Virus record (IMG/VR): IMGVR_UViG_3300012933_000144
Span: 1-40,646 of that record
Length of the DNA: 40,646 nucleotides
Strand: one strand, 5' to 3'
Source: a virus
Lineage: Duplodnaviria > Caudoviricetes
Made by a program: the position numbers and the translations under genes
In this document: in pieces, positions 18,236 to 30,358 of the stretch
How the letters are laid out: each line of letters opens with the position of its first letter
How positions within the stretch are numbered: the first letter of the stretch is position 1
The notes under the pieces: model-generated
Database searches by the model: none
Told to the model about the DNA's origin: nothing
What the model saw: the letters and a program-made list of their open reading frames with translations, nothing else

Positions 18236-18646
18236 ATGAGAAAGAAACGAGCAGATGCATCAAATCCTATTGCAAGGGCATACGGCATCAAGAAAATGAA
18301 AGAAGCAGTTGTTGGACATCGAATATCAATCTTCATGATGGAAGATGGTGAAGATGCTGAGAGTGCAACAGTAGCAACATCACTACCAGTCTTTGCAATG
18401 ATGTATTGCTTAGAAGAGTTGAAAGAAGAAGAGTCAATTGATTACAGGAAGTTAAAAAGTGCAGTTAATGTCTTACTCGAATGTTCAGGAAACAGCTTCA
18501 AATGGAAGCGAGATTACGCAATCACCCTCGACAACGCTTTGGGGATCGCTCAAGATCGATGGGGGAAAATACCTCAAGAGCTGCTTGGTCGGGCAGTCAA
18601 CTATCTATCTCACGGATTTAATCAATCGCACAGTGCAGGACGGTGA
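18236..18646 (+). CDS. Hypothetical protein
   Basis: 136-aa ORF abutting the previous stop. Confidence 0.6.
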   Translation: MRKKRADASNPIARAYGIKKMKEAVVGHRISIFMMEDGEDAESATVATSLPVFAMMYCLEELKEEESIDYRKLKSAVNVLLECSGNSFKWKRDYAITLDNALGIAQDRWGKIPQELLGRAVNYLSHGFNQSHSAGR

Positions 18647-19076
18647 TTGTCTGTTGTGGACTGGACCATCAAATGGATCAGGCTATCCAATGGTCAGCAT
18701 CAAGCGCAAGAACAAGCCATTGAGAACCATCATGGCTGTTCTTTTTCAGCGCACAAAGAAGTCAAATCAAGTTATCACGACAACTTGTGGCAATAAAAGA
18801 TGCATTCATCCTGACCACTTGCGTGTTGTTGCAAAGAAGTCTGTATTCAAGATTGCAACAGCAGACTACAAGAATCCTGTACGCAGTGCCAAGCTAAGTG
18901 CTTATGCAAGAGCGAACCGAGCAAAGCTAAACATGGAACAAGCTAGAGAGATCAGGCTGTCAGACAAGACGCATAGAGAGCTGGCGCTGGAATATGGAGT
19001 CAACAAAGCCACGATTGGAAACATCAAGGCTGGTAGGACATGGAAAGAAACAGGAAACCTTTGGAGGGGTCTATGA
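18459..19076 (+). CDS. His-Me/HNH-like protein with C-terminal HTH (start uncertain, likely ~18585)
   Basis: DCLLWTG..GYP...TCGNKRCIHPDHL, then AKLNMEQAREIR...LALEYGVNKATIGNIKAGRTW. Confidence 0.7.
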   Translation: MQLMSYSNVQETASNGSEITQSPSTTLWGSLKIDGGKYLKSCLVGQSTIYLTDLINRTVQDGDCLLWTGPSNGSGYPMVSIKRKNKPLRTIMAVLFQRTKKSNQVITTTCGNKRCIHPDHLRVVAKKSVFKIATADYKNPVRSAKLSAYARANRAKLNMEQAREIRLSDKTHRELALEYGVNKATIGNIKAGRTWKETGNLWRGL

Positions 19077-19255
19077 GTCACAACTTAGATGCAACAGTAT
19101 TTGTCTACATGCTGAAAGAGACGGGACAAATTAAGTGCGAATACTTGGACAAAGCAAAAGAGTTTGAAGATGACCCAGATTGGGAACACATAGCAACGCT
19201 AGAACCACGTATGTGGATTGAGTACAACTGGCAAAAAGTTCAGGAGAAAACATGA
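19073..19255 (+). CDS. Hypothetical protein
   Basis: GGAGG RBS; ATGA coupling. Confidence 0.6.
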   Translation: MSHNLDATVFVYMLKETGQIKCEYLDKAKEFEDDPDWEHIATLEPRMWIEYNWQKVQEKT

Positions 19256-19815
19256 CGCAAGATGAAATCAAGTTTTATACATACGCTCATTTCAAAAAAG
19301 ACAACTCAACAATTTTTTACATAGGAAAAGGTAAAAAAGGCAGAGAAGTTGTAAGGAAAGGTAGAAACAAACATTGGATAAATACTGTAAATAAGCATGG
19401 TTTATCTGTTGAAAGACTTGCTGGATGGAAAACAGAAAAAGAAGCATTTGAACACGAAAAGTTTTTGATTTGGTGTTTTAAAGACATGGGCTACAACTTA
19501 GTAAACATGACTGATGGCGGTGAAGGTGTATCAAATCCTTCAAATGAAACAAGGGAAAAAATGTCTGTTTCTCAACTTGCGCGAAATAGAAAATTAACAG
19601 AAGAACACAAAGCCGCTTTGTCAATTGCTCACAAAGGTAAACCACTATCTATTGAACATCGTAAAAAAATAGCATTAGCAAATTCTGGAAAGAAAAAATC
19701 TGCCGAATCAATAGCAAAGATGTCAGCTAATTCTTGGGCAAAAACCGAAGAAGGTCGTAAAAGTTTGTCATTGTCAACAGCAAATTATTGGAAAAGAAAG
19801 AAAGGTTTGCTATGA
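19252..19815 (+). CDS. GIY-YIG-type homing endonuclease with NUMOD3 repeats
   Basis: FYTYAH...FYIGKG, LVNMTDGGEG, EEHKAALSIAHKGK / IEHRKKIALANSGK; AT-rich relative to its flanks. Confidence 0.8.
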   Translation: MTQDEIKFYTYAHFKKDNSTIFYIGKGKKGREVVRKGRNKHWINTVNKHGLSVERLAGWKTEKEAFEHEKFLIWCFKDMGYNLVNMTDGGEGVSNPSNETREKMSVSQLARNRKLTEEHKAALSIAHKGKPLSIEHRKKIALANSGKKKSAESIAKMSANSWAKTEEGRKSLSLSTANYWKRKKGLL

Positions 19816-20090
19816 ACTCCGAAGAAATCATTGAGATGGCTATAAAACTTGGGGCTGGTTGTTATACGCCACCACCAACTACCTTGGTAAAAGGAATCAC
19901 AATGACATTTGATCAACTTGAAGCCTTTGCCAAACTGGTAGCAGCTAAAGAGCGTGAGGCGTGTGTTAATGTGATTGAAACCCATCGCATTCCCGTTGGT
20001 AATTCTGCCGCAGGGGAAATGGCTTGCGAATGGACATACGATGCTTTAAAAGAAATCCGTACCGCAATCCGAGCAAGAGGTGAAGCATGA
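19812..20090 (+). CDS. Small hypothetical protein
   Basis: EEIIEMA...LEAFAKLVAAKEREAC...AIRARG. Confidence 0.7.
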   Translation: MNSEEIIEMAIKLGAGCYTPPPTTLVKGITMTFDQLEAFAKLVAAKEREACVNVIETHRIPVGNSAAGEMACEWTYDALKEIRTAIRARGEA

Positions 20091-20434
20091 CACATCAAAC
20101 CCATTTTGAGAAGTGGTGGCACGACGAGGGTAGCCAAGCCCCATATACGCATCACGATTGTGAAGAGCACACAAAACGAATGTGCGAGATAGCGTGGGCT
20201 AATGGCGCTTACAAAGAGCGCGAGCACTACGATGACTTGTTTGCACACATCAAAGGCTGGTGTGAGGCGTATCCAATCGCCGCATTTCCTGAGCCTGACT
20301 TTAAAAAGGCACATGAAGTGTTGAAAGCAAACGGAATGACGCTGGATGCAATCAGCGCAAGCAACATGAAGCACGTCATCACACAGGTGCAAAAAATGAT
20401 TGATGCAGCAATCCGAGCAAGAGGTGAAGCATGA
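20064..20434. repeat. 27-bp perfect direct repeat (20064-20090, 20408-20434)
   Basis: GCAATCCGAGCAAGAGGTGAAGCATGA occurs twice, encoding AIRARGEA-stop plus the next RBS and start. Confidence 0.9.
20087..20434 (+). CDS. Hypothetical protein
   Basis: 115 aa; ends with the same AIRARGEA as the previous gene. Confidence 0.7.
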   Translation: MTHQTHFEKWWHDEGSQAPYTHHDCEEHTKRMCEIAWANGAYKEREHYDDLFAHIKGWCEAYPIAAFPEPDFKKAHEVLKANGMTLDAISASNMKHVITQVQKMIDAAIRARGEA

Positions 20435-20459
20435 TGTACTTAGGAATGCTATGATTGAT

Positions 20460-20527
20460 GCAACAGCTACCTTTAGCGGGGGAAAAGACGATTCATCACC
20501 GTCCTGCTGTTGCTTTCACAGTGATGA
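20460..20527 (+). ncRNA. Structured leader upstream of an HNH gene
   Basis: GCAACAGC/GCTGTTGC closes two hairpins; loop TCATCAC is complementary to GTGATGA at 20521-20527; preceded by TGCTATGAT extended -10. Confidence 0.55.
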
Positions 20528-20551
20528 TTTCCACCAATGATGGGGTGCGAC

Positions 20552-21031
20552 ATGCTTACACAAGCAAAATTAAAAGAACTGATTTCATACAACCAAGAAA
20601 CTGGTGATATGAAATGGAAAAACATTTCACATAACAGAGTGAAGCCATACACAAAAGCTGGACACATGGACAGAACTGGTTATGCAAGATTGTCTATTGA
20701 AGGAAAGAAATACATGGTTCATAGGCTTGCATGGCTTTATGTGTATGGATCATTTCCAGAAAATGCAATAGATCACATCAATAGAGACAGAAATGACAAC
20801 AGGTTTTCAAATTTAAGGCTTGCCACCGTAAAGCAAAACAATGAAAACATATCTTTAAGAAGTCACAACACAAGTGGGTATAGAGGGGTTACATGGCACA
20901 AAGCTGCTAAAAAATGGATGGCTTCAGTTACTCATAATAAAAAGCAAATCTATCTTGGGTTGTTTGACAATTTAGATGACGCTGCAAATTCCGCAAAAAA
21001 TAAACGAAACGAACTTTTTACACACATATGA
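20552..21031 (+). CDS. HNH endonuclease with AP2-like domain
   Basis: HRLAWLYVYG...IDHINRDRNDNRFSNLR...NTSGYRGVTW...YLGLF. Confidence 0.9.
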   Translation: MLTQAKLKELISYNQETGDMKWKNISHNRVKPYTKAGHMDRTGYARLSIEGKKYMVHRLAWLYVYGSFPENAIDHINRDRNDNRFSNLRLATVKQNNENISLRSHNTSGYRGVTWHKAAKKWMASVTHNKKQIYLGLFDNLDDAANSAKNKRNELFTHI

Positions 21032-21495
21032 AATTATTTTGCGGGATAGATCCAGGCGCTGTATCTGGTGCATGGGGAATTGTTGACCTACACGGCAAGT
21101 ATTGGTCGTGTGGAGACATTACAAACCTTGATGGAAAAATTAACTCAGTTGATTTCAAGGCGGAACTCAGTCAAGCTGTTGACAAGCAAGATGTTGAATT
21201 CTGCCTTGAGGCTGTACATGCCTTCAGCGGGCAAGGTGTTTCCTCGACTTTTAAATTTGGACGTGCTGTAGGGGCTATAGATGCCGTCTGTGAGTCTTTT
21301 CATGCGCCAGTGCATTACGTCACGCCGCAGAAATGGAAAAAACACTTTAATTTGAGCCAAGACAAGTACGCAAGCCTTGAGTTGGCAAAAGAGATTTGGC
21401 CTCTAGCACCGATCAAGCTAAAGAAGCACCACAACATGGCTGAGGCTTTGTTGTTGGCAGAGTACTTGCGTAAATGGCAACTTGATTTGTTGTAA
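21028..21495 (+). CDS. RuvC-like Holliday junction resolvase
   Basis: GIDPG, LEAVHA..GQGVSSTFKFG, VTPQKWK, AEALLLA. Confidence 0.85.
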   Translation: MKLFCGIDPGAVSGAWGIVDLHGKYWSCGDITNLDGKINSVDFKAELSQAVDKQDVEFCLEAVHAFSGQGVSSTFKFGRAVGAIDAVCESFHAPVHYVTPQKWKKHFNLSQDKYASLELAKEIWPLAPIKLKKHHNMAEALLLAEYLRKWQLDLL

Positions 21496-21537
21496 AAAAC
21501 AAACAATGACTTTGATTTCTGAGCTACAATTTCAAAC

Positions 21538-21768
21538 ATGAATAAACGTGGCGGCAAAAGACAAGGTGCAGGACGCAAAAAGATCGGTGGTCAATCACGG
21601 GTCATTCGAGCTAGGGTTGCAGAAGTTACCGAACAGGCATTGATGCTTGCAGGTAATGGCAACCTGTCTGAAGGAATCAGGCGCTTGGCAGACAAGCACT
21701 GGCGGTTAATACATGGTTCATTAAAGGTAGATCAAGATGCAGGAAGCAGACCCAAACAAAGCGATTAA
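21538..21768 (+). CDS. Small DNA-binding protein
   Basis: RGGKRQGAGRK basic N-terminus and GNGNLSEGIR; TACAAT lies 7 nt upstream (possibly leaderless). Confidence 0.65.
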   Translation: MNKRGGKRQGAGRKKIGGQSRVIRARVAEVTEQALMLAGNGNLSEGIRRLADKHWRLIHGSLKVDQDAGSRPKQSD

Positions 21769-22066
21769 CGCAATCATAATGATGGCTCCAGAGTTTGCAC
21801 AAGCAAAAGCCAACAGGGTGTTCTTGGAGGAGTCTAGAAAAAGCAAGAAAGCAACTCTAATGAGAAGTTGTGACGAAGCAGTGTTGGGCAAACAAGAGAC
21901 ATATGCCTACAGCCATCCAGAGTATTTGGAGCTTCTTGAAGAAATTTACAAAGCTGTTGAAGCTGAAGAGCGCTTGAGATTGATGATTGCTGCAGCACAG
22001 GCTCGCATTGAGATCTATAAAGTCAACCAGTACACAGCGCGAGCAGAAATGAAAGCATTTAGTTAA
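21737..22066 (+). CDS. Helical hypothetical protein (possibly UvsY-like)
   Basis: FAQAKANRVFLEESRKSKKA...ETYAYSHPEY coiled coil. Confidence 0.65.
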   Translation: MQEADPNKAINAIIMMAPEFAQAKANRVFLEESRKSKKATLMRSCDEAVLGKQETYAYSHPEYLELLEEIYKAVEAEERLRLMIAAAQARIEIYKVNQYTARAEMKAFS

Positions 22067-22078
22067 AAGGAGTGAATT

Positions 22079-22339
22079 ATGAATGAGTTGACATTTGAAG
22101 AGTTTTGTAGCCAGCCAATGCAGTTGGTAATGCACTTAAGCGCAGAGAAGGAACACTACATTCATCGCCACGCGCCAACAGTAGGTGTAAGCAAGATCGT
22201 TATCACGCGAGTCAAGAAGCACGGCGGCTTTGGCAAGTCCTACGCCACATACCACTTGAAGGATGACGAGCGCGTGTTCAATGAAGCCGATCAGGTCTAT
22301 CTGGCGTACATGGAAAGAGTTTGTGGGGTGAAGTCATGA
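22079..22339 (+). CDS. Hypothetical protein
   Basis: AAGGAG RBS; 86 aa. Confidence 0.65.
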   Translation: MNELTFEEFCSQPMQLVMHLSAEKEHYIHRHAPTVGVSKIVITRVKKHGGFGKSYATYHLKDDERVFNEADQVYLAYMERVCGVKS

Positions 22340-22440
22340 ATTGGCCTTTCCCTAGCTATCCACCAGTGCCGTGGACAAAGAAGCAAAAACAATCGTACCA
22401 ACAAGCGCAACGCGCACAATTGCCAGAGGCTCCGCTATGA
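22336..22440 (+). CDS. Small hypothetical protein (34 aa)
   Basis: MNWPFPSYPPVPWTKKQ...PEAPL; ATGA coupling at both ends. Confidence 0.5.
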   Translation: MNWPFPSYPPVPWTKKQKQSYQQAQRAQLPEAPL

Positions 22441-22658
22441 CTGACAAGACATTGAATGTATTTTTCTCATTTGTTTTAGCGTACTTTTTGGGGTTTTTAA
22501 TCACTTATGGTCACGCGTACAACTCGCGACCAAATATGAATCGAGTTGCTGGAACTGAGATTTATTACAAGGTTAGTGAAGCATCAAAAGCATTTGATTC
22601 TCTTTTCATATCTGCATTTTGGCCTCTGTATGTTTCAACTATTGCGTGGGAGAAGTAA
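22437..22658 (+). CDS. Small membrane protein
   Basis: GAGG RBS; two hydrophobic segments; FWPLY. Confidence 0.6.
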   Translation: MTDKTLNVFFSFVLAYFLGFLITYGHAYNSRPNMNRVAGTEIYYKVSEASKAFDSLFISAFWPLYVSTIAWEK

Positions 22659-23135
22659 ATGAGTAAAGAAGCACTAAACAATGCACTCAGATACGACCAT
22701 GAAACTGGTGATTTTTGGTGGAAAAGTACAGCGCCTCACAAAATGGCAGGAAAGCTGGCAAACGCCAAAGACAAACTTGGCTATGTGTGTATCAAATTCA
22801 AAGGCAAGATGTATAAGGCTCACAGGATTGCTTTGTATTTCTGGAATGGTGTTTGGCCTACTGGTGATGTTGATCACATCAATGGATTACCAAACGACAA
22901 CAGGATTTGCAATTTGCGTGAGGTGTCACATTCTGTAAATCTGCAAAACCAAAGAAAAGCAAGGTCTGACAATCAGTCTGGATTTCTTGGCGTAAGTCCA
23001 AATGGCAATAAATGGAGAGCAGAAATCAGAGTTGATGGCAAAAAGATAAACCTTGGAACCTATATAACACCACAAGAGGCACACCAAGCCTATGTAAAAG
23101 CAAAGCGTGAAATGCACGAAGGAGCAACTTTATGA
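22659..23135 (+). CDS. HNH endonuclease with AP2-like domain
   Basis: AHRIAL...VDHINGLPNDNRICNLR...NQSGFLGV...NLGTY. Confidence 0.9.
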   Translation: MSKEALNNALRYDHETGDFWWKSTAPHKMAGKLANAKDKLGYVCIKFKGKMYKAHRIALYFWNGVWPTGDVDHINGLPNDNRICNLREVSHSVNLQNQRKARSDNQSGFLGVSPNGNKWRAEIRVDGKKINLGTYITPQEAHQAYVKAKREMHEGATL

Positions 23136-24216: not shown

Positions 24217-24397
24217 AGGTAGCGCACCACGTCCATTTGACGTAGATGAAGAGACATTCGCTGGCGCATGGGCCAGAACATTTGGAAAACAAAATGCAAA
24301 GCAAAAACAAGAAGACACCGACACAAGCGGAGAAAGCACACATCCTGAGAATCAAGGAGATGAGCTGCATAGTCTGCGACCAGACGGGTCCAAGTGA
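24206..24397 (+). CDS. Small hypothetical protein
   Basis: GAGGAG RBS; MSGKGSAPRPF N-terminus; overlaps the next gene. Confidence 0.45.
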   Translation: MSGKGSAPRPFDVDEETFAGAWARTFGKQNAKQKQEDTDTSGESTHPENQGDELHSLRPDGSK

Positions 24398-24587
24398 GTG
24401 CCACGAAATCAATCAAGGCCAATGGTTCACATCCATTCCTTTGTGCGCTGACTGCCACAGGGGTAGCCAGAACGGAATCCACGGTCAAAAGCGCATGTGG
24501 AACATCAAAAAGATGGATGAACTCTCAGCCCTGAATGAAACCATTAAAAAATTAATGGGGGAGGGGGGTGGCAGTGTCAACTTCTAA
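24294..24587 (+). CDS. Ref/DUF968-like HNH-type nuclease
   Basis: CIVC....SECHEI...IPLCADCHRG..NGIHG. Confidence 0.7.
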   Translation: MQSKNKKTPTQAEKAHILRIKEMSCIVCDQTGPSECHEINQGQWFTSIPLCADCHRGSQNGIHGQKRMWNIKKMDELSALNETIKKLMGEGGGSVNF

Positions 24588-24689
24588 ATTTCAAAAAAGT
24601 TTCAGAGTTGAAAAATCTGGTTAAGTTGGTTTTCAAAATCGGACATGGCAAAAACCAGAAAAATCAGCATTGTGTTGTTTTTTTGCCAC

Positions 24690-24907
24690 GGTTGGTGAGC
24701 GCTTACTAACTTAGGCGGCGAAGTTAGCACTTACTAACCAAGGCGAAAAGTTACAACGCATGAGACAACAAACAAAGCCGCCAAAACCGCATAAAACGAC
24801 GAATAAGGCGCTTATTTTGTTGGCCTATACCAAACCAAGCAAAAGCACAAAAGCCGCTTAAAACGCGTTTTATCGTTTGTCGTGCGAAGTTAGCGCTTAC
24901 TAACCAA
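24690..24907. promoter_or_regulatory. Cluster of three palindromic protein-binding sites (cores 24695-24706, 24723-24734, 24889-24900)
   Basis: GTGAGCGCTTAC, GTTAGCACTTAC and GTTAGCGCTTAC, each followed by TAAC; 24718-24741 and 24884-24907 match at 23/24. Confidence 0.75.
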
Positions 24908-24913
24908 ACCATT

Positions 24914-24947
24914 AAAAAAAGGGGCGACACTTAAGCCGCCGCCTTTT
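24914..24947 (-). terminator. Rho-independent terminator of the leftward cassette
   Basis: Minus strand AAGGCGGCGGC-TTAA-GTGTCGCCCC-T7, just after the stop at 24957. Confidence 0.6.
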
Positions 24948-24956
24948 CGTAAAAGT

Positions 24957-25136
24957 TTAATCGGGCATTTTGTCCAACAAAACCCAAAAGTGCCAAGGTA
25001 AGCAAACGCGCAAAACCTTGGGGGCCGTCATTGGTAGGCAATAGACCAAGCCATTTTGAAAAGAAGTCACTTCGCACAATTTGTCGTCCGTTGTCGTGAC
25101 AATGCCCACGTTACCTGGTCGAATTTCATTCGTCAT
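24957..25136 (-). CDS. Small hypothetical protein (59 aa)
   Basis: MTNEIRPGNVGIV...; AAGGGG RBS; ATGA coupling. Confidence 0.6.
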   Translation of the reverse strand: MTNEIRPGNVGIVTTTDDKLCEVTSFQNGLVYCLPMTAPKVLRVCLPWHFWVLLDKMPD

Positions 25137-25348
25137 TTTTTGCCCCTTACTTTTGCCAAGTTTGACGTTAGGACGTTTTTTGCCCGTTCGTCGCCGCCCC
25201 ATAAAACCGAAACCATAAAAGGTCCGTTTGGCCTTACCTGGTCGTATACGTGGGCAATAATGCCGCGTTTGGCCTTTGCGCTTGGTCCGACAAGTTTGCA
25301 AAAGTCGGACGAAAAACGGACCTTATCGCCAATTTGCGGTTTATCCAT
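25133..25348 (-). CDS. Small SH3-like hypothetical protein
   Basis: QIGDKVRF...RGII...VSVLWGG...VLTSNLAKV; AAGGGG RBS. Confidence 0.65.
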   Translation of the reverse strand: MDKPQIGDKVRFSSDFCKLVGPSAKAKRGIIAHVYDQVRPNGPFMVSVLWGGDERAKNVLTSNLAKVRGKK

Positions 25349-25526
25349 GGTAAAGCCCCTTATTTTTAAGCCACTGAGAAAAAGGGAATTCTTTTATTAC
25401 GTGACGGCGAATCGCTTTGTTTTGGCCCATTTTGCGAACCCTTGCGTACTCTATAGCGTCCGCCTTGTCTAAAAAGTCTATTTCGGACAACGTCCCGTTG
25501 TGCATATATACAAACAAAGTCCACAT
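25341..25526 (-). CDS. Small hypothetical protein
   Basis: AAAAGGGGTTAAAAATG start context; FLDKADAIEYA. Confidence 0.65.
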   Translation of the reverse strand: MWTLFVYMHNGTLSEIDFLDKADAIEYARVRKMGQNKAIRRHVIKEFPFSQWLKNKGLYHG

Positions 25527-25528
25527 TT

Positions 25529-25666
25529 TTAACCCCTTTTGATAAAAGAATTTTTATATTGACCCATTAGCATAAAAGCCGTTTTCATTCGTTCGGCTTC
25601 TTGGTATGTATCAAAATTCAATAAAACAATTTCGCCATCATTGCAAATTAAGTGCAAAATATACAT
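25529..25666 (-). CDS. Small hypothetical protein (45 aa)
   Basis: AAAAAGGGCTTAAAATG start context; FDTYQEAE. Confidence 0.6.
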   Translation of the reverse strand: MYILHLICNDGEIVLLNFDTYQEAERMKTAFMLMGQYKNSFIKRG

Positions 25667-25667
25667 T

Positions 25668-26348
25668 TTAAGCCCTTTTTGCAAAAAATACAGTTTGAAC
25701 CTTGGCCTTAGCGTTACCGTGAGCGGGAAACCCGACAATTGTCGAACGGTTAGAAACCGCGCAAAGTTGGCAAGTGGCGCAAGATACATTGTCCCGATAA
25801 GTGGCGGGGCAAGTTACAACGGTGCGTCCGCCTGGTGTCGTTTGCTTTGTTGGCGAATCAATAGCCAAAACCGTGACAACGGGACCAACGCCCAACGCCG
25901 CCAATTCGTCCGCATGGTCCAAACTGTTAGCCGATAAATTTACACAAAAGCCCCATTCGTTCGCCGCCTTGATCCATGGAAAATTGGCGGGGTCGTTTGT
26001 TTTGTGGGTATAAGTGAAACCTTTTTTACCAAGGTTGGCCAAAACCAATTCGCCAAGCGCCTTGGGGTCCACGGTTTCTCCGTCACCAGGTAAGTCACCC
26101 GCCGCATTGTGTCGCCAAAATTGGCCTTGGGGTAACGCCTTAATCGATTCGCAAAAGCCGCCCCAATTAAGGCCGCGTTCGCCGTTGGACACTTTGCGCC
26201 AATGTATCGCCAAGGGTCCGCTTTTGGCATAACAGCCGCCGTCATTGAACGGGCAAGAGTTTGGGCAAGAGTTTGCGGACGTTATGGATACGGGAATTGG
26301 TCCCGTTTTTACGTTCGCACTTTTTAAGGTTAGAGCAACTGAGTACAT
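25668..26348 (-). CDS. Cys-rich gp88/DUF7227-like protein (radical-SAM-like Cys spacing)
   Basis: SCPNSCPFNDGGCYA, FWRHNAAGDL, GFTYTH, VNLSA, CPAT...SCATCQLC, VGFPAHG. Confidence 0.7.
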   Translation of the reverse strand: MYSVALTLKSANVKTGPIPVSITSANSCPNSCPFNDGGCYAKSGPLAIHWRKVSNGERGLNWGGFCESIKALPQGQFWRHNAAGDLPGDGETVDPKALGELVLANLGKKGFTYTHKTNDPANFPWIKAANEWGFCVNLSANSLDHADELAALGVGPVVTVLAIDSPTKQTTPGGRTVVTCPATYRDNVSCATCQLCAVSNRSTIVGFPAHGNAKAKVQTVFFAKRA

Positions 26349-26377
26349 TTTTTAACGCCTTTTAACTAATTGATTGA

Positions 26378-26704
26378 TTAATCCAACGCATACCGTGCGT
26401 TTGGGTGTTGATTGACGAATTCGGCGAACTTGTCATAAGGCATGCAAACCAAGTCGACCAAGGTTTCCAATTGGCGTTGTGACGGACCAAAATATCCCGT
26501 ATCGGTTTTTTGTATCCCGTCACAAAGTACGCGTTTGTTTGTTTCATCCAGTACGGCGATACCGTTAAGTTCGGACCCGATAAGGCCAAACGCGTTGTAT
26601 GCGCCGTAAACAATGAAACGATAAACCCCTTGGCCCTTGTCACTTGTCACGTCACGACTAACCCACGTATAGGGTCCGACACTTTTTAAACTTTGAGTTG
26701 TCAT
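26378..26704 (-). CDS. Hypothetical protein (108 aa)
   Basis: AAGGGG RBS before MTTQSLKSVG. Confidence 0.65.
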   Translation of the reverse strand: MTTQSLKSVGPYTWVSRDVTSDKGQGVYRFIVYGAYNAFGLIGSELNGIAVLDETNKRVLCDGIQKTDTGYFGPSQRQLETLVDLVCMPYDKFAEFVNQHPNARYALD

Positions 26705-26718
26705 TGGTTTCCCCTTGG

Positions 26719-27030
26719 TTAGCGTGACGAAATACGAACGGACACAAAAGCCGCGCCTTGGTGCGTATGCGCCGTAATGAGTTGGCGGGACGGTGCGAAG
26801 TGTTCGGCAATTGTTTTCCAATCTGTAGAAATACGACCAGGTGAGTAGATAACGGCGGCTTTGTACAGTTTGCCGACAACCTTGGTTTCGCCGCTATCAC
26901 TTAGGTTTTGTTTGAGTTGGTCCGCCAAGGTTTCTAAGTCCGCTATTTCGGCACGAAGTTGGCCCAAGCGGTCGACGACTTCGCCAAGGGTAATGACGGG
27001 GGATACAACGGGGGAAAGTACTGTTTGCAT
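26719..27030 (-). CDS. Coiled-coil hypothetical protein
   Basis: VDRLGQLRAEIADLE coiled coil and TDWKTIA; AAAAGGTG RBS. Confidence 0.7.
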   Translation of the reverse strand: MQTVLSPVVSPVITLGEVVDRLGQLRAEIADLETLADQLKQNLSDSGETKVVGKLYKAAVIYSPGRISTDWKTIAEHFAPSRQLITAHTHQGAAFVSVRISSR

Positions 27031-27061
27031 GATTGACACCTTTTAAAAAAGAAAAGAACGA

Positions 27062-27220
27062 TTAAATTTTGACTTCTTGCGTGGCGTACACAATAGCCCA
27101 AAAAAAGAATGCGACAAGAATGAACGCGTGGTAGGGGTCGACAAGGCCAAGCATAAGGCCAAGGAAAGTAACGCCAAAACCCAGAACGGCGGCAAAAGCC
27201 ATAAGAGAACGCATAATCAT
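27062..27220 (-). CDS. Small two-TM membrane protein (52 aa), first gene of the cassette
   Basis: MIMRSLMAFAAVLGFGVTFLGLMLGLVDPYHAFILVAFFFWAIVYATQEVKI; shares a 19-bp RBS block with the next gene. Confidence 0.65.
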   Translation of the reverse strand: MIMRSLMAFAAVLGFGVTFLGLMLGLVDPYHAFILVAFFFWAIVYATQEVKI

Positions 27221-27281
27221 GATTGACACCTTTTAACAGTTACCAAGGGTCCGCTTGGTCGGTTTGTCTAAAGACAGTGTA

Positions 27282-27309
27282 AATATACGTCCGTTTTGCA
27301 GCTTGTCTA
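27282..27309 (-). promoter_or_regulatory. Sigma70-like promoter for the leftward cassette
   Basis: Minus strand TAGACA-16-TATATT. Confidence 0.5.
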
Positions 27310-27688
27310 ATTGATTGTTTCTAAGCCGTTTACTGGTTCAATAGCTTTTGATTATGTAGCCACAAAAAGAAAAGAAAAAGATAAACCTTGGGGCCTTGGT
27401 TTGCTCTTCTCATAAGGGATAGATAAGGGGACGGTATAGGGGGATATAGGCGGCTTACCTTGGCTTAGGGCTTAGTCTTGGCCTTGGTTACCTACAAACC
27501 AGATAACCCAAAAAAACCAGATAGACACCCAAACGAACACCGACAAACAAACGCCAAACGCGTGCATGAGACAACATATGCAAAGTTGTGCATAGGTTAG
27601 CCACTTAGCCTTGGCCTTGGTTCGTCGCAGTGCCTAATAGATACTTGCAGTATTATGTAAAGAAGATTAATGCGAATCATTTGCAGTG

Positions 27689-27715
27689 GCTTAAGTTAGT
27701 GAGCGCTTACCAACC
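27689..27715. promoter_or_regulatory. Fourth palindromic site, inverted relative to 24690-24716
   Basis: GCTTAAGTTAGTGAGCGCTTACCAACC matches the reverse complement of 24690-24716 at 24/27. Confidence 0.75.
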
Positions 27716-27774
27716 AAGCGGACGGCTTAGGCCCCCCTTGAGTCATAGCGAGGGGGCGCAGGGACTGGCCTGTA

Positions 27775-27820
27775 AAACACCTATCGAAACTTAGTTCAAA
27801 CACCTATCAAAACATAGTCC
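27775..27820. repeat. Tandem 23-bp imperfect repeat
   Basis: AAACACCTATCGAAACTTAGTTC / AAACACCTATCAAAACATAGTCC (20/23). Confidence 0.75.
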
Positions 27821-27881
27821 AAAAAAAAATTTTATACCCACCAAAAAATAGTTTTGAAAATGTAGATCTATAATCAAAACA

Positions 27882-28067
27882 CATCAAGACGCATGAGGAT
27901 TGCGCCGCAGTCATAGTTGCTGCCTGATTTGAAGGGTCAAGTTAGTCCTCAGTCGTGTTGGTGAATGTGTAGATTGATACACACCATAGGCGTGAGGATG
28001 CAAGTTAGTTCTAGATGCCGCCATGTATGCAGCTTGCAAAGCCTGAGATCAATACAGGCCACCAACA
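27882..28067 (+). ncRNA. Candidate two-domain structured RNA upstream of the packaging operon
   Basis: TATAAT at 27869-27874; stems TGAGGATTG/TAGTCCTCA, TGTTGGTG/CACCAACA, TGTGTA/TACACA, TGCAAGTT/AGCTTGCA, GCCTG/CAGGC. Confidence 0.6.
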
Positions 28068-28109
28068 ACTCTCAAAAAAAATCGCGGTCTTGCTCCGCTG
28101 AAAGGTCTT

Positions 28110-28502
28110 ATGGGACTCCTAGACATGGGCGATATGCCTGAGAAGCCTGAAGAGGCAGGCATAAATGGCTTGAATGCCAAGACCAATGCTGAGATGCGTG
28201 ATACGCTGGTTAAGACTCGGATGCTTGGTCCTGACAAGACTGGTGCTGCTAATGGTGGATACTGGCGTGAATTGGCTAAGGTTTGGCGTATTGCACCCAT
28301 TCAGGCTCGTCGTCGCCTCTGTGCCAATTGCGAGTACTTTGACAATACCCCTGAGATGCTGGCTGAGATGGAGTCAATTCCTGAAGACAGGTTTGATGCT
28401 GATGGCGGTGGTCGAGGCTACTGCCACAAGTTTGAGTTCATTTGCCACAACCTGCGTGTCTGCAAGGCGTGGGAACGTAAAGATTACGAAGAAGCTGAAT
28501 AA
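28110..28502 (+). CDS. Hypothetical protein with HiPIP-like Cys pattern
   Basis: LCANCEYF...GYCHKFEFICHNLRVCKAW. Confidence 0.7.
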   Translation: MGLLDMGDMPEKPEEAGINGLNAKTNAEMRDTLVKTRMLGPDKTGAANGGYWRELAKVWRIAPIQARRRLCANCEYFDNTPEMLAEMESIPEDRFDADGGGRGYCHKFEFICHNLRVCKAWERKDYEEAE

Positions 28503-28511
28503 GGAGCGTTC

Positions 28512-28961
28512 ATGGCTGGTTTTCCAATGCGTCGAGCGTTAGAGAAGAAGATTGAAGAGTTGGGTGGGATTGAGTTTGTCTCGTCCCATATAGCCGAGGG
28601 TATGACTATTGGTCGCCTCGCTGAGTTCATTGAGTGTTCTCGCCCAATGCTGTCCTTTTGGATCAACCAAACTGAAGACCGTAAAAATGCCGTTCTTTCC
28701 GCACGTAAGCTCAAAGCTGAAAAACTGGCTGAAGATGCTTTGGACATCGCTGATTTCGCTGATGGCGCTTCCTCTTCGGCTGTCAACAAGGCTCGTCTAC
28801 AAGTGGATACTCGTAAATGGATGGCTTCTAAACTTGATCCTGAAGGTTTTGGCGAGAAAGCACAAAACGAAGTGAATATCTCCATTGGCGACCTCCACCT
28901 ACAGGCTTTAAAGCATATGGGAAAAGCTATCGAAGCCACAGAAGTCATAGAGAATAACTAA
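28512..28961 (+). CDS. terS: Terminase small subunit
   Basis: N-terminal HTH, EDALDIAD, ARLQVDTRKWMASKLDPEGFG; directly before terL. Confidence 0.85.
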   Translation: MAGFPMRRALEKKIEELGGIEFVSSHIAEGMTIGRLAEFIECSRPMLSFWINQTEDRKNAVLSARKLKAEKLAEDALDIADFADGASSSAVNKARLQVDTRKWMASKLDPEGFGEKAQNEVNISIGDLHLQALKHMGKAIEATEVIENN

Positions 28962-30358
28962 TGGCGACAAACCCGTTTATTGAGTTCATTAAGAAGTACC
29001 GCAATGACCCAGTGTCTTTTGTACGCGAAGTACTTGGAACAGAGCCAGATGAGTGGCAAATCGACTTCCTCAATGCCGTTGCCGCTGGAAATCGAAAGAT
29101 ATCTATCCGCTCAGGTCACGGAGTTGGAAAGTCTACTGCTGGTTCATGGGCCATGCTCTGGTACTTGCTCACTCGATACCCCGTTAAAGTGGTCGTCACG
29201 GCTCCCACGTCCAGCCAACTTTATGATGCCCTCTTTGCAGAATTGAAGCGTTGGGTCAAAGAATTACCTGCGCCTATTCAAGAGCTTCTCGATGTCAAAC
29301 AAGAACGTATCGAACTCAAAGCCTCCGCAACCGAGGCCTTCATTTCTGCTCGAACCTCACGAGCCGAGCAGCCAGAAGCACTCCAAGGTATCCACTCAGA
29401 AAACGTCATGCTCATCGCAGATGAGGCCTCTGGTGTCCCAGAACAGGTGTTTGAAGCTGCTGCTGGCTCTATGTCTGGTCATAGCGCTGTTACTATTTTG
29501 TTTGGTAATCCTGTCCGTTCTAGCGGCTTTTTCTTTGATACACATAACCGTCTAAAAGACGACTGGTGGACAAAACGTGTCTCTTGTGTAGACTCTAAGC
29601 GCGTTTCTGAAGACTTTGTGAACGACATGAAGTCTAGATATGGAGAAGACTCAAATGCTTTCCGCATCCGTGTTCTTGGCGAGTTCCCACGATCTGATGA
29701 CGATACCATCATTCCTATGGACCTCCTTGAATCTGCAAAACACAGGGATGTCGTTGCCTACGAAGATGCACCCATCCTCTGGGGATTGGACGTGGCGCGT
29801 TTTGGGTCAGACTCCTCTGTTCTATGTAAGCGACAATCCAATGTGGTCACCACCCTCGATAAGTGGCGAAACCTCGACCTGATGCAATTGACTGGAGCCG
29901 TAGTTGCCCAATACGAAGCCTGTGGGCCAAAAGAAAAGCCTGTTGAAATCCTTGTCGACTCTATTGGCCTCGGTGCTGGTGTTGTTGACCGTCTACGTGA
30001 GCTTAATCTTCCTGCTCGTGGTATCAATGTGTCTGAGTCTCCCGCTATGGGCCAAACTTATATCAATCTACGTGCAGAACTTTGGGGAAAAGCTAAAGCG
30101 TGGTTGGAAAAACGCGATTGCAAACTTCCGAACAACGAAGACCTAATCGCTGAACTGGCGACAGTCCGTTACTCGTTCAACAGTAGCGGCAAGATGAAAA
30201 TCGAATCCAAAGACGATATTCGTCGTCGTGGCCTCAAATCACCTGACATGGCTGATGCATTTGTATTAACTTTTGCCTCTGATGCTGGTGTTGCAAGCTA
30301 CGGATTCAAACAATCTTGGGGTCAATCGTTAAAACGTAGTATTCGAGGTATCGTTTGA
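28961..30358 (+). CDS. terL: Terminase large subunit
   Basis: SGHGVGKS Walker A, LIADEASG Walker B, FGNP, GLDVARFGSD nuclease motif, SPDMADA. Confidence 0.95.
   Translation: MATNPFIEFIKKYRNDPVSFVREVLGTEPDEWQIDFLNAVAAGNRKISIRSGHGVGKSTAGSWAMLWYLLTRYPVKVVVTAPTSSQLYDALFAELKRWVKELPAPIQELLDVKQERIELKASATEAFISARTSRAEQPEALQGIHSENVMLIADEASGVPEQVFEAAAGSMSGHSAVTILFGNPVRSSGFFFDTHNRLKDDWWTKRVSCVDSKRVSEDFVNDMKSRYGEDSNAFRIRVLGEFPRSDDDTIIPMDLLESAKHRDVVAYEDAPILWGLDVARFGSDSSVLCKRQSNVVTTLDKWRNLDLMQLTGAVVAQYEACGPKEKPVEILVDSIGLGAGVVDRLRELNLPARGINVSESPAMGQTYINLRAELWGKAKAWLEKRDCKLPNNEDLIAELATVRYSFNSSGKMKIESKDDIRRRGLKSPDMADAFVLTFASDAGVASYGFKQSWGQSLKRSIRGIV

Follow-up and report, generated by a model that had tools for sequence, protein, structure and literature searches.

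The TetR-family protein SlmA of Escherichia coli binds a palindrome and degenerate variants of it, and in its DNA-bound form antagonises FtsZ. Here we describe four SlmA-type palindromes in the DNA of a tailed phage, IMG/VR virus record IMGVR_UViG_3300012933_000144, analysed over its whole length of 40,646 nucleotides (the window); three lie at the left edge and one at the right edge of a leftward block of small genes. The closest described counterparts are the chromosomal SlmA-binding sites (SBS) of E. coli, which (PMC3020112, PMC3573117, PMC4117426) have the same 12-bp G-T-R-A-G-Y palindrome; the flanks of the phage sites are like those of SBS17 and SBS12, and the tandem pair in the window resembles the two-SBS plasmids that block E. 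coli division. Unlike E. coli SBS, the window sites lie in phage DNA, are non-coding, cluster at the edges of one block and are closer to the consensus than host sites; the probable host is betaproteobacterial, and SlmA binding is predicted.

Other systems bear comparison. The SBS of the Vibrio cholerae chb promoter (10.1101/141812) is, like site 4 of the window, intergenic and ~160-170 bp upstream of a promoter; unlike in Vibrio, three of the four window sites are at convergent gene ends, and regulation here is hypothetical. The first-step-transfer stop of phage T5 (10.1101/866236) likewise has non-coding DNA with host-protein sites bordering an early segment, and DnaA boxes co-occur with SBS in other phage lineages; T5, however, is another type of phage, SlmA-type sites stand in place of DnaA boxes here, and for the window a terminal repeat or a two-step entry would be hypothetical. 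For lambda Kil-type FtsZ inhibitors (PMC3961180) the predicted outcome is the same, a division block in the infected cell, but no inhibitor gene was recognised here, and the effect would come from DNA sites plus a host protein. Finally, the restriction-motif-free leading regions of Autographiviridae (PMC12455610) are similar to the variable early block of the window, which is poor in restriction-type motifs; unlike them, this block is bracketed by SlmA-type sites, and its order of entry is predicted. A literature search by titles and the starts of abstracts, with subscription papers and supplements outside its coverage, found no publication on SlmA sites in phage DNA. New here are the two-sided bracket round a depleted block, the match to the SBS17 and SBS12 flanks, and origin-biased sites on betaproteobacterial chromosomes.

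Four palindromes at the edges of a leftward cassette

A preliminary description of the window had listed four SlmA-like palindromes in non-coding DNA, and both points held: GTGAGCGCTTAC was found at 24695 and 27699, GTTAGCACTTAC at 24723 and GTTAGCGCTTAC at 24889. As 20-bp sites, with their matrix scores, they are:

24691..24710 (core 24695-24706), no strand: SlmA-type site 1, fits GTRAGYRCTYAC; 24.8 bits
24719..24738 (core 24723-24734), no strand: SlmA-type site 2, T at position 3 of one half; 23.1 bits
24885..24904 (core 24889-24900), no strand: SlmA-type site 3, T at position 3; 23.3 bits
27695..27714 (core 27699-27710), no strand: SlmA-type site 4, fits GTRAGYRCTYAC; 24.8 bits

With at most one mismatch, GTKAGCRCTTAC, a pattern derived from the four sites themselves, matched four times in the window against 0.58 expected, and none of 100 shuffles gave four. 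The 20-bp matrix was trained on 133 sites of other phage loci, five loci of the window's clade being excluded; it scored the four sites at 23-25 bits, and the whole-genome scan that had been proposed as a check returned nothing else of at least 6 bits in the rest of the 40.6 kb. Mismatch distance to the plain consensus GTGAGTACTCAC was also tried and did not discriminate (15 matches at three mismatches against 14.45 expected). No annotated gene covers any site; three short GTG-start open reading frames (ORFs; 42-59 aa), which stood outside the family-library scans, overlap sites. Site 2 is 28 bp from site 1 and has the flank CGAA, as in E. coli SBS12, and site 3 adjoins the cassette terminator.

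The outer sites had been described as ~20-bp palindromes forming an inverted repeat. The repeat was recovered (24690-24716 / 27689-27715, 24/27 positions), but each site is self-complementary at only 16/20 positions, the two are also 18/20 direct repeats, and the inverted repeat exists because both are near-palindromes. A further suggestion was that the outer pair are recombination sites inverting the cassette. Inversion is extremely improbable: the right site is usually absent from relatives, 29 of the 32 spanning relatives have mostly minus-strand ORFs, every cassette-gene homologue that was found lies on that strand, no strand change was seen at any of the 15 joints shown (of 36), and no recombinase family was found among 76 ORFs.

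Identity of the binding protein

The sites are real, conserved and widespread, and they are most likely host SlmA sites; judged on base preferences, flanks, distribution and host gene content, host SlmA very probably binds them. Binding assays with symmetric double changes, as given by Tonthat et al. (PMC3020112), yielded the base rule G1 T2 R3 A4 G5 Y6 for each half-site. Both halves of sites 1 and 4 obey it; sites 2 and 3 each depart from it by a T at position 3 of one half-site, a feature shared with natural SBS12. Among 92 further sites found near scan anchors with one mismatch allowed, 44 fit the full rule and 32 have T at position 3. The flanks of these 92 sites, which were not part of the search, have A at -1 (96%), T at -3 (73%) and G at -4 (77%), and the phage sites extend to GTWA-core-TWAC.

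The primers for natural SBS12 and SBS17 given in PMC4117426 carry phage-type flanks, and SBS12 combines T3 with the CGAA flank of the inner sites. The phage matrix was built before these primers were examined; from flanks only, it gave P values of 7e-5 for SBS17 and 0.007 for SBS12 (best of three registers), the two natural sites scored. A relaxed 20-bp pattern, loosened after the primers were known, likewise has SBS17 as its best match in E. coli. The seven best E. coli matches to this pattern lie outside the Ter domain, which we take to be ~1.2-2.2 Mb; their placement is not significant alone.

Candidate hosts have the protein. Of 121 Burkholderiales genomes, 88 have an SlmA above the family cut-off, as does 1 of the 14 controls (E. 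coli); the unpublished genome G026 is counted in this tally and in the 251-genome motif tally below. The recognition helix and residues T33, T34, S44-H51, K55, F65 and N102 are invariant in 32/32 betaproteobacterial SlmA sequences, and a Polynucleobacter metagenome-assembled genome (MAG) encodes SlmA with the same recognition helix. Core motifs in Polynucleobacter (the genus of G001) numbered 198 against 91 for the control, in 88 against 53 of 91 genomes. The dnaA-proximal quarter of the chromosome holds 37/51 listed sites in 24 genomes of this genus, against 4/20 for the control, a bias weakened as support because orthologous sites are counted repeatedly and so are not independent, and genome sizes are rounded. 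Elsewhere in Burkholderiales the same quarter holds 17/31 sites against 3/11, which is not significant against the control. In G100, a genome chosen for its high count, all seven core sites are within 200 kb of dnaA.

Tight clusters of core sites surround dnaA, most of the sites being within genes such as yidC (G100:C1:211217-495701; G049:C2; G156:C1:516773-778660), and a degenerate extended SBS-like site occurs at the dnaA start in three genomes of the genus of G001 (G171:C1:178, G281:C1:145, G334:C1:232). No SBS was found near slmA in 32 loci, so autoregulation is unsupported.

A different host TetR-family regulator of SlmA-like specificity might bind instead, since the host of the phage is not established and candidate hosts have many TetR genes. 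We consider this very improbable, because core and flanks both fit natural SlmA sites and the motif is origin-biased on the candidate host chromosomes. SlmA, the protein named in the preliminary description, is well supported by the base rule at the outer sites, the SBS12 and SBS17 flanks, the spread across lineages in whose records no phage TetR protein was found (below), and SlmA together with origin-proximal sites in candidate hosts. SlmA binds DNA as dimers-of-dimers according to PMC4117426 and 10.1101/141812; further background is in PMC3116907, PMC10611076 and PMC10636190.

Conservation and spread among phages

Close relatives were taken as the best 80 of 458 by terminase large subunit (TerL), a set that includes many overly short contigs and many near-duplicates; 37 of the 80 have the 12-bp motif. 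The two edges fared differently in the conservation check that had been proposed: the left cluster is kept in 31 of the 32 relatives that span both flanking genes, but the right site in only 4. Of 54 loci that include 900 bp or more upstream of terS, the terminase small subunit gene, 7 have a right site. The left cluster typically comprises a pair 28-29 bp apart, a third site ~165-195 bp further and then a terminator. From terS onward there was no matrix match in 510,948 bases of relatives, and one bare core, in L027. Exact GTGAGTACTCAC occurs in several relatives; in ten near-complete records every motif match is located at such block edges, and two-sided brackets were also seen in G650 and G651.

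The motif extends well beyond the clade. From 10/64 parts of the viral collection, AGTGAGYRCTYACTAAC is estimated to occur in ~800 stretches and its reversed pattern in 16. TerL was found in 66 of 80 long loci and fell under 23 cluster labels at 60% identity, so that, allowing for split terL genes, the motif appears to span about 20 terminase lineages. Long ORFs contain only 10 of 192 sites; arrays are mostly just upstream of terS, toward a divergent block of small genes, and in 37 of 126 pairs the spacing between neighbouring sites is 28-29 bp. The TetR_N domain was found in none of 31 phage records (18 of them incomplete) and in none of the 13 near-complete ones. A motif common to phages that share no recognised binding protein suggests a host factor.

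Two phage proteins had been put forward as alternative binders: TerS, and the product of the gene at 21538, which may be a ribbon-helix-helix protein (a weak lead: score 0.90, rank 26) and is conserved in the clade. Such a protein would bind for packaging or regulation, and the adjacency of arrays to terS and to a conserved G/C-run element fits this, as do flanks more conserved in phage than in host sites. Yet several small-gene families with no relation to one another have this motif in front of them at the terS position, and in L006 and L008, in which TerS is 97-98% identical and the G/C-run hairpin is retained, site 4 is degenerate and effectively lost. Homologues of the 21538 protein occur in 7 of 31 records, all within the window's clade. 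Binding by a phage protein is distinctly improbable. For the protein encoded at 26378, the Atlas search returned nothing above 0.8.

Other motifs accompany the sites. In 121 loci (L107-L227, e.g. L134, L136, L127, L140), scanned with what we take to be the DnaA, NtrC and IHF consensus motifs, 42 perfect DnaA boxes lie within 500 bp of sites in 26 loci (shuffled mean 1.15), 34 NtrC-like boxes within the same distance in 14 loci (shuffled mean 0.45), and 32 IHF-like matches near sites (7 shuffled), the comparison with shuffles leaving non-coding composition uncontrolled. Shuffles were used because a reversed-DnaA control was itself 6-fold enriched and resembles an AGGG-W4-CCCT-type palindrome family. 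The window has no perfect DnaA box at all; no DnaA or NtrC box was found in its hubs or near sites in 37 clade loci, and no IHF-like match in its hubs. The hubs of other lineages would fit general decoys as well as structures acting physically in entry. Within 40 bp of a site, 73 of the 121 loci have a G-run/C-run element followed by an A/T tract, against a background of 6% per position; upstream of terS in many loci this element is a candidate packaging or end signal.

Of 37 clade loci, 23 have a palindrome of the AGGG-W4-CCCT type beside the sites, as do 18 of the 121 other loci (0 in shuffles; L023, L015, L026, L031, L043 and L116 among others), and the related AAACACCTATC is at 27775-27810 of the window. 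The palindrome TAGGGTWWACCCTA gave no host clue, since matches in 251 Burkholderiales genomes (10 genomes against 9 for the control) showed no enrichment. The 16-bp palindrome GTTAGTGRYCACTAAC accompanies arrays as 28 cores in 20 of the 121 loci (L114, L134, L155, L173, L182); it is identical to part of E. coli SBS17 at 14 of 16 positions and may be the same site in a 4-bp shifted register.

The block, its predicted entry and a possible effect on host division

The sites frame a segment of unusual composition in a complete virus genome, of freshwater origin, whose terminal repeats come from circular assembly. Family scans (PHROG on 76 ORFs, Pfam on 44 chosen ORFs) identified a tailed phage with ejection proteins, spanin, endolysin, the recombination genes Erf and RecE, TerS and TerL; they returned no integrase, invertase or TetR family. 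The features round the sites, with ~seven small leftward genes between the gene at 24246-24587 and the terminase operon, are:

24246..24587, plus strand: final gene of the rightward operon, followed in relatives too by the left site cluster
24590..24690, no strand: stretch of A/T tracts to the left of site 1, much alike in the seven relatives compared; possibly bent DNA
24670..27880, no strand: word-depleted segment
24923..24943, minus strand: terminator-like hairpin at the end of the leftward cassette (consensus match only)
25133..27220, minus strand: leftward cassette of ~seven small genes (ORF list and family scans)
25668..26348, minus strand: DUF7227 (GP88-related) gene within the cassette (E 2.8e-87)
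27282..27309, minus strand: sigma-70-like promoter TAGACA-16-TATATT, toward the cassette (consensus match only; ~390 bp from site 4)
27731..27759, no strand: conserved C-run/G-run inverted repeat beside site 4 (conservation in relatives); candidate packaging or end signal
27869..27874, plus strand: conserved TATAAT upstream of the terminase operon (conservation in relatives)
28512..28961, plus strand: terminase small subunit, TerS (family scans)
28961..30358, plus strand: terminase large subunit, TerL (family scans)

The cassette between the sites had been called atypical, and its word content bears this out: CAG/CTG occurs 24 times against 124 expected and CTC/GAG 19 times against 75. Together CAG/CTG, GAG/CTC and GATG/CATC were observed 50 times in 24670..27880 against 251 expected, a ~five-fold depletion of restriction-type words in a 3.2-kb reverse-strand block, although the words were picked from this block and the effect size is therefore circular in the window. 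Their rate is 1.6 per 100 inside the block, the lowest rate elsewhere being 5.7 per 100. The best change-points, 24670 and 27880, lie 25 bp and 170 bp outside the outer sites, so that the four sites fall a little way inside both edges. In 33 of 39 motif-scan loci and 32 of 32 clade loci these words are less frequent on the early side than on the TerL side, and upstream genes are divergent in 35 of the 39. The depletion may reflect restriction avoidance in first-injected DNA, for which PMC12455610 offers a precedent, and the depleted block probably enters the cell first.

This arrangement invites a reading in which SlmA is a physical dock during DNA entry: the right site would cap or anchor the leading end and the left cluster would hold the DNA once the first 3 kb are inside, pending protection of the remainder by early products, like the proposed DnaA-box injection stop of T5. 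The closeness of the change-points to the sites, the place of the left cluster 3' of the cassette terminator between convergent gene ends, its retention in relatives, the polarity of word depletion and gene direction, the two-sided brackets in G650 and G651, and the DnaA and NtrC-like boxes of other lineages all fit it, as do the T5 stop model (10.1101/866236) and word avoidance in first-injected DNA (PMC12455610). Against it, ends and ejection direction are unmapped and contigs alone cannot show ends, the window's hubs and clade have no DnaA or NtrC box, the right site is present in few spanning relatives, and the T5 model is itself a proposal. The contigs from four public runs are of relatives rather than the window phage, and a depth dip at 27573-27839 in X4 is uninterpretable. 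On balance, an entry dock is rather unlikely, if the strongest of the competitors. Equally tentative is a combined picture in which many unrelated freshwater phages edge first-injected DNA with gene-free, high-affinity docks for host chromosome proteins (SlmA in the window, DnaA and NtrC-like boxes in other lineages) that would act as an entry brake or end cap and, once the DNA has replicated, as a DNA-only brake on host division and replication initiation.

SlmA could alternatively act on phage transcription, either by activating or titratably repressing the terminase or early promoter or as a roadblock between convergent operons. A reporter was repressed by an SBS placed between promoter elements, and SlmA activates Vibrio Pchb from 167 bp upstream (10.1101/141812); site 4 is ~160 bp upstream of the conserved TATAAT at 27869, and arrays are just upstream of terS in many lineages. 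However, no site overlaps a predicted promoter (promoters whose total in the scan was not above shuffles), the most conserved cluster is at gene ends, and site 4 has degenerated in L006 and L008. A transcriptional role is a less probable alternative than entry, and we regard it as improbable.

For the purpose of the sites, division delay is the leading reading. Host SlmA loaded on the phage sites would extend nucleoid occlusion to the phage DNA itself; as phage genomes are amplified, active SlmA would spread through the cell, and division would be stalled by inhibition of FtsZ ring assembly, without a recognised inhibitor gene. FtsZ antagonism is the best-known activity of DNA-bound SlmA, and two SBS on a multicopy plasmid block division of, or kill, E. 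coli at ~4-fold SlmA overproduction (PMC3573117 and PMC4117426). A Polynucleobacter chromosome has one to four perfect cores, far fewer than the near-consensus sites, three or four per genome, that tens of phage genomes would carry after replication; on these grounds division delay leads. Among FtsZ-contact residues of betaproteobacterial SlmA, F65 and N102 are kept in 32/32, position 101 is basic in 31/32, position 105 is Met, which is tolerated in E. coli, and R73 is mostly replaced (below). That SlmA binds and that its purpose here is inhibition of FtsZ ring assembly is plausible, though we stop somewhat short of favouring it over everything else combined; where SlmA does bind, a division-block purpose would hold in about half of cases.

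Several observations weigh against this reading, some against SlmA as binder and others against the division block. The E. coli precedent needs an excess of SlmA (~4-fold), and in the betaproteobacterial proteins the FtsZ-contact residue R73 is Leu in 30/32 and G97 is kept in only 20/32. Neither E. coli (64 against 72 for the control, one mismatch) nor the order as a whole (120 of 251 genomes, mostly with 0-3 sites) shows enrichment of the core motif. The total count of the relaxed 20-bp pattern in E. coli is not above the control, and counts of the extended pattern at three mismatches fall below the control (E. coli, 49 against 53; five genomes of the genus, 15-21 against 42-57). Phage-type flanks are missing from 29 host core sites. 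Arrays occur in none of 13 GenBank phage records tested, which include four phages of Burkholderiales hosts and one Gordonia phage. DNA matches turned up in 5 of 241 Polynucleobacter genomes and in 4 of 401 from the order, rates that do not settle the host. The fixed position of the sites beside the G/C run in the 73 loci is not explained by simple titration and, with the DnaA boxes of other lineages, suggests a role in entry or at an end. In sum, of the hijack of host nucleoid occlusion proposed in the preliminary description, the SlmA identification is well supported; the division block as its consequence is a prediction, limited by the 4-fold precedent, Leu73, the weak host link and the fixed position, which would also suit a role in entry, end protection or transcription.

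That link is as follows. The spanin and endolysin genes indicate a Gram-negative host. One Polynucleobacter MAG carries a pair of related phage contigs (72% for TerL, 97% for one gene), and G337 has a phage-related fragment beside a repressor-like gene. The host is thus weakly indicated to be a Burkholderiales bacterium, binning error being possible, which also counts against the reading. Cultured relatives by TerL, capsid or DUF7227 are all below 60% identity, too distant to indicate a host, and BLAST of site stretches against GenBank phages gave chance matches only. The cultured Curvibacter phage P26059A (KY981271.1, W08), which has a Burkholderiales host, has 17 dispersed near-matches against 5 for the control.

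Some further features of the window and its relatives stand apart from these questions. CATGAGAC, presumably a BsmAI/BsaI-like word or a second protein's site, is found at 24759 and 27565, confined in the window to both cassette edges, and is close to sites in 25 of 37 clade loci. Cys-rich GP88/DUF7227-type genes recur in early blocks of several array-bearing lineages (L115, L169, L186). The rightward operon has four HNH/homing endonuclease genes at 18459-23135, a region across which run contigs of relatives have no coverage or skip parts. No Rfam family was found in 24400-28300.

If the division-delay reading is true, cis-acting phage DNA alone would control host division in a manner invisible to gene-based annotation, and the strategy would be common among uncultured freshwater phages. 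The phage arrays offer a 20-bp SlmA site, evolution-optimised and extending beyond the published 12-bp consensus, while the chromosomes examined provide sequence evidence for SlmA-type origin-proximal sites in Betaproteobacteria. The motif could also mark the hosts of uncultured phages.

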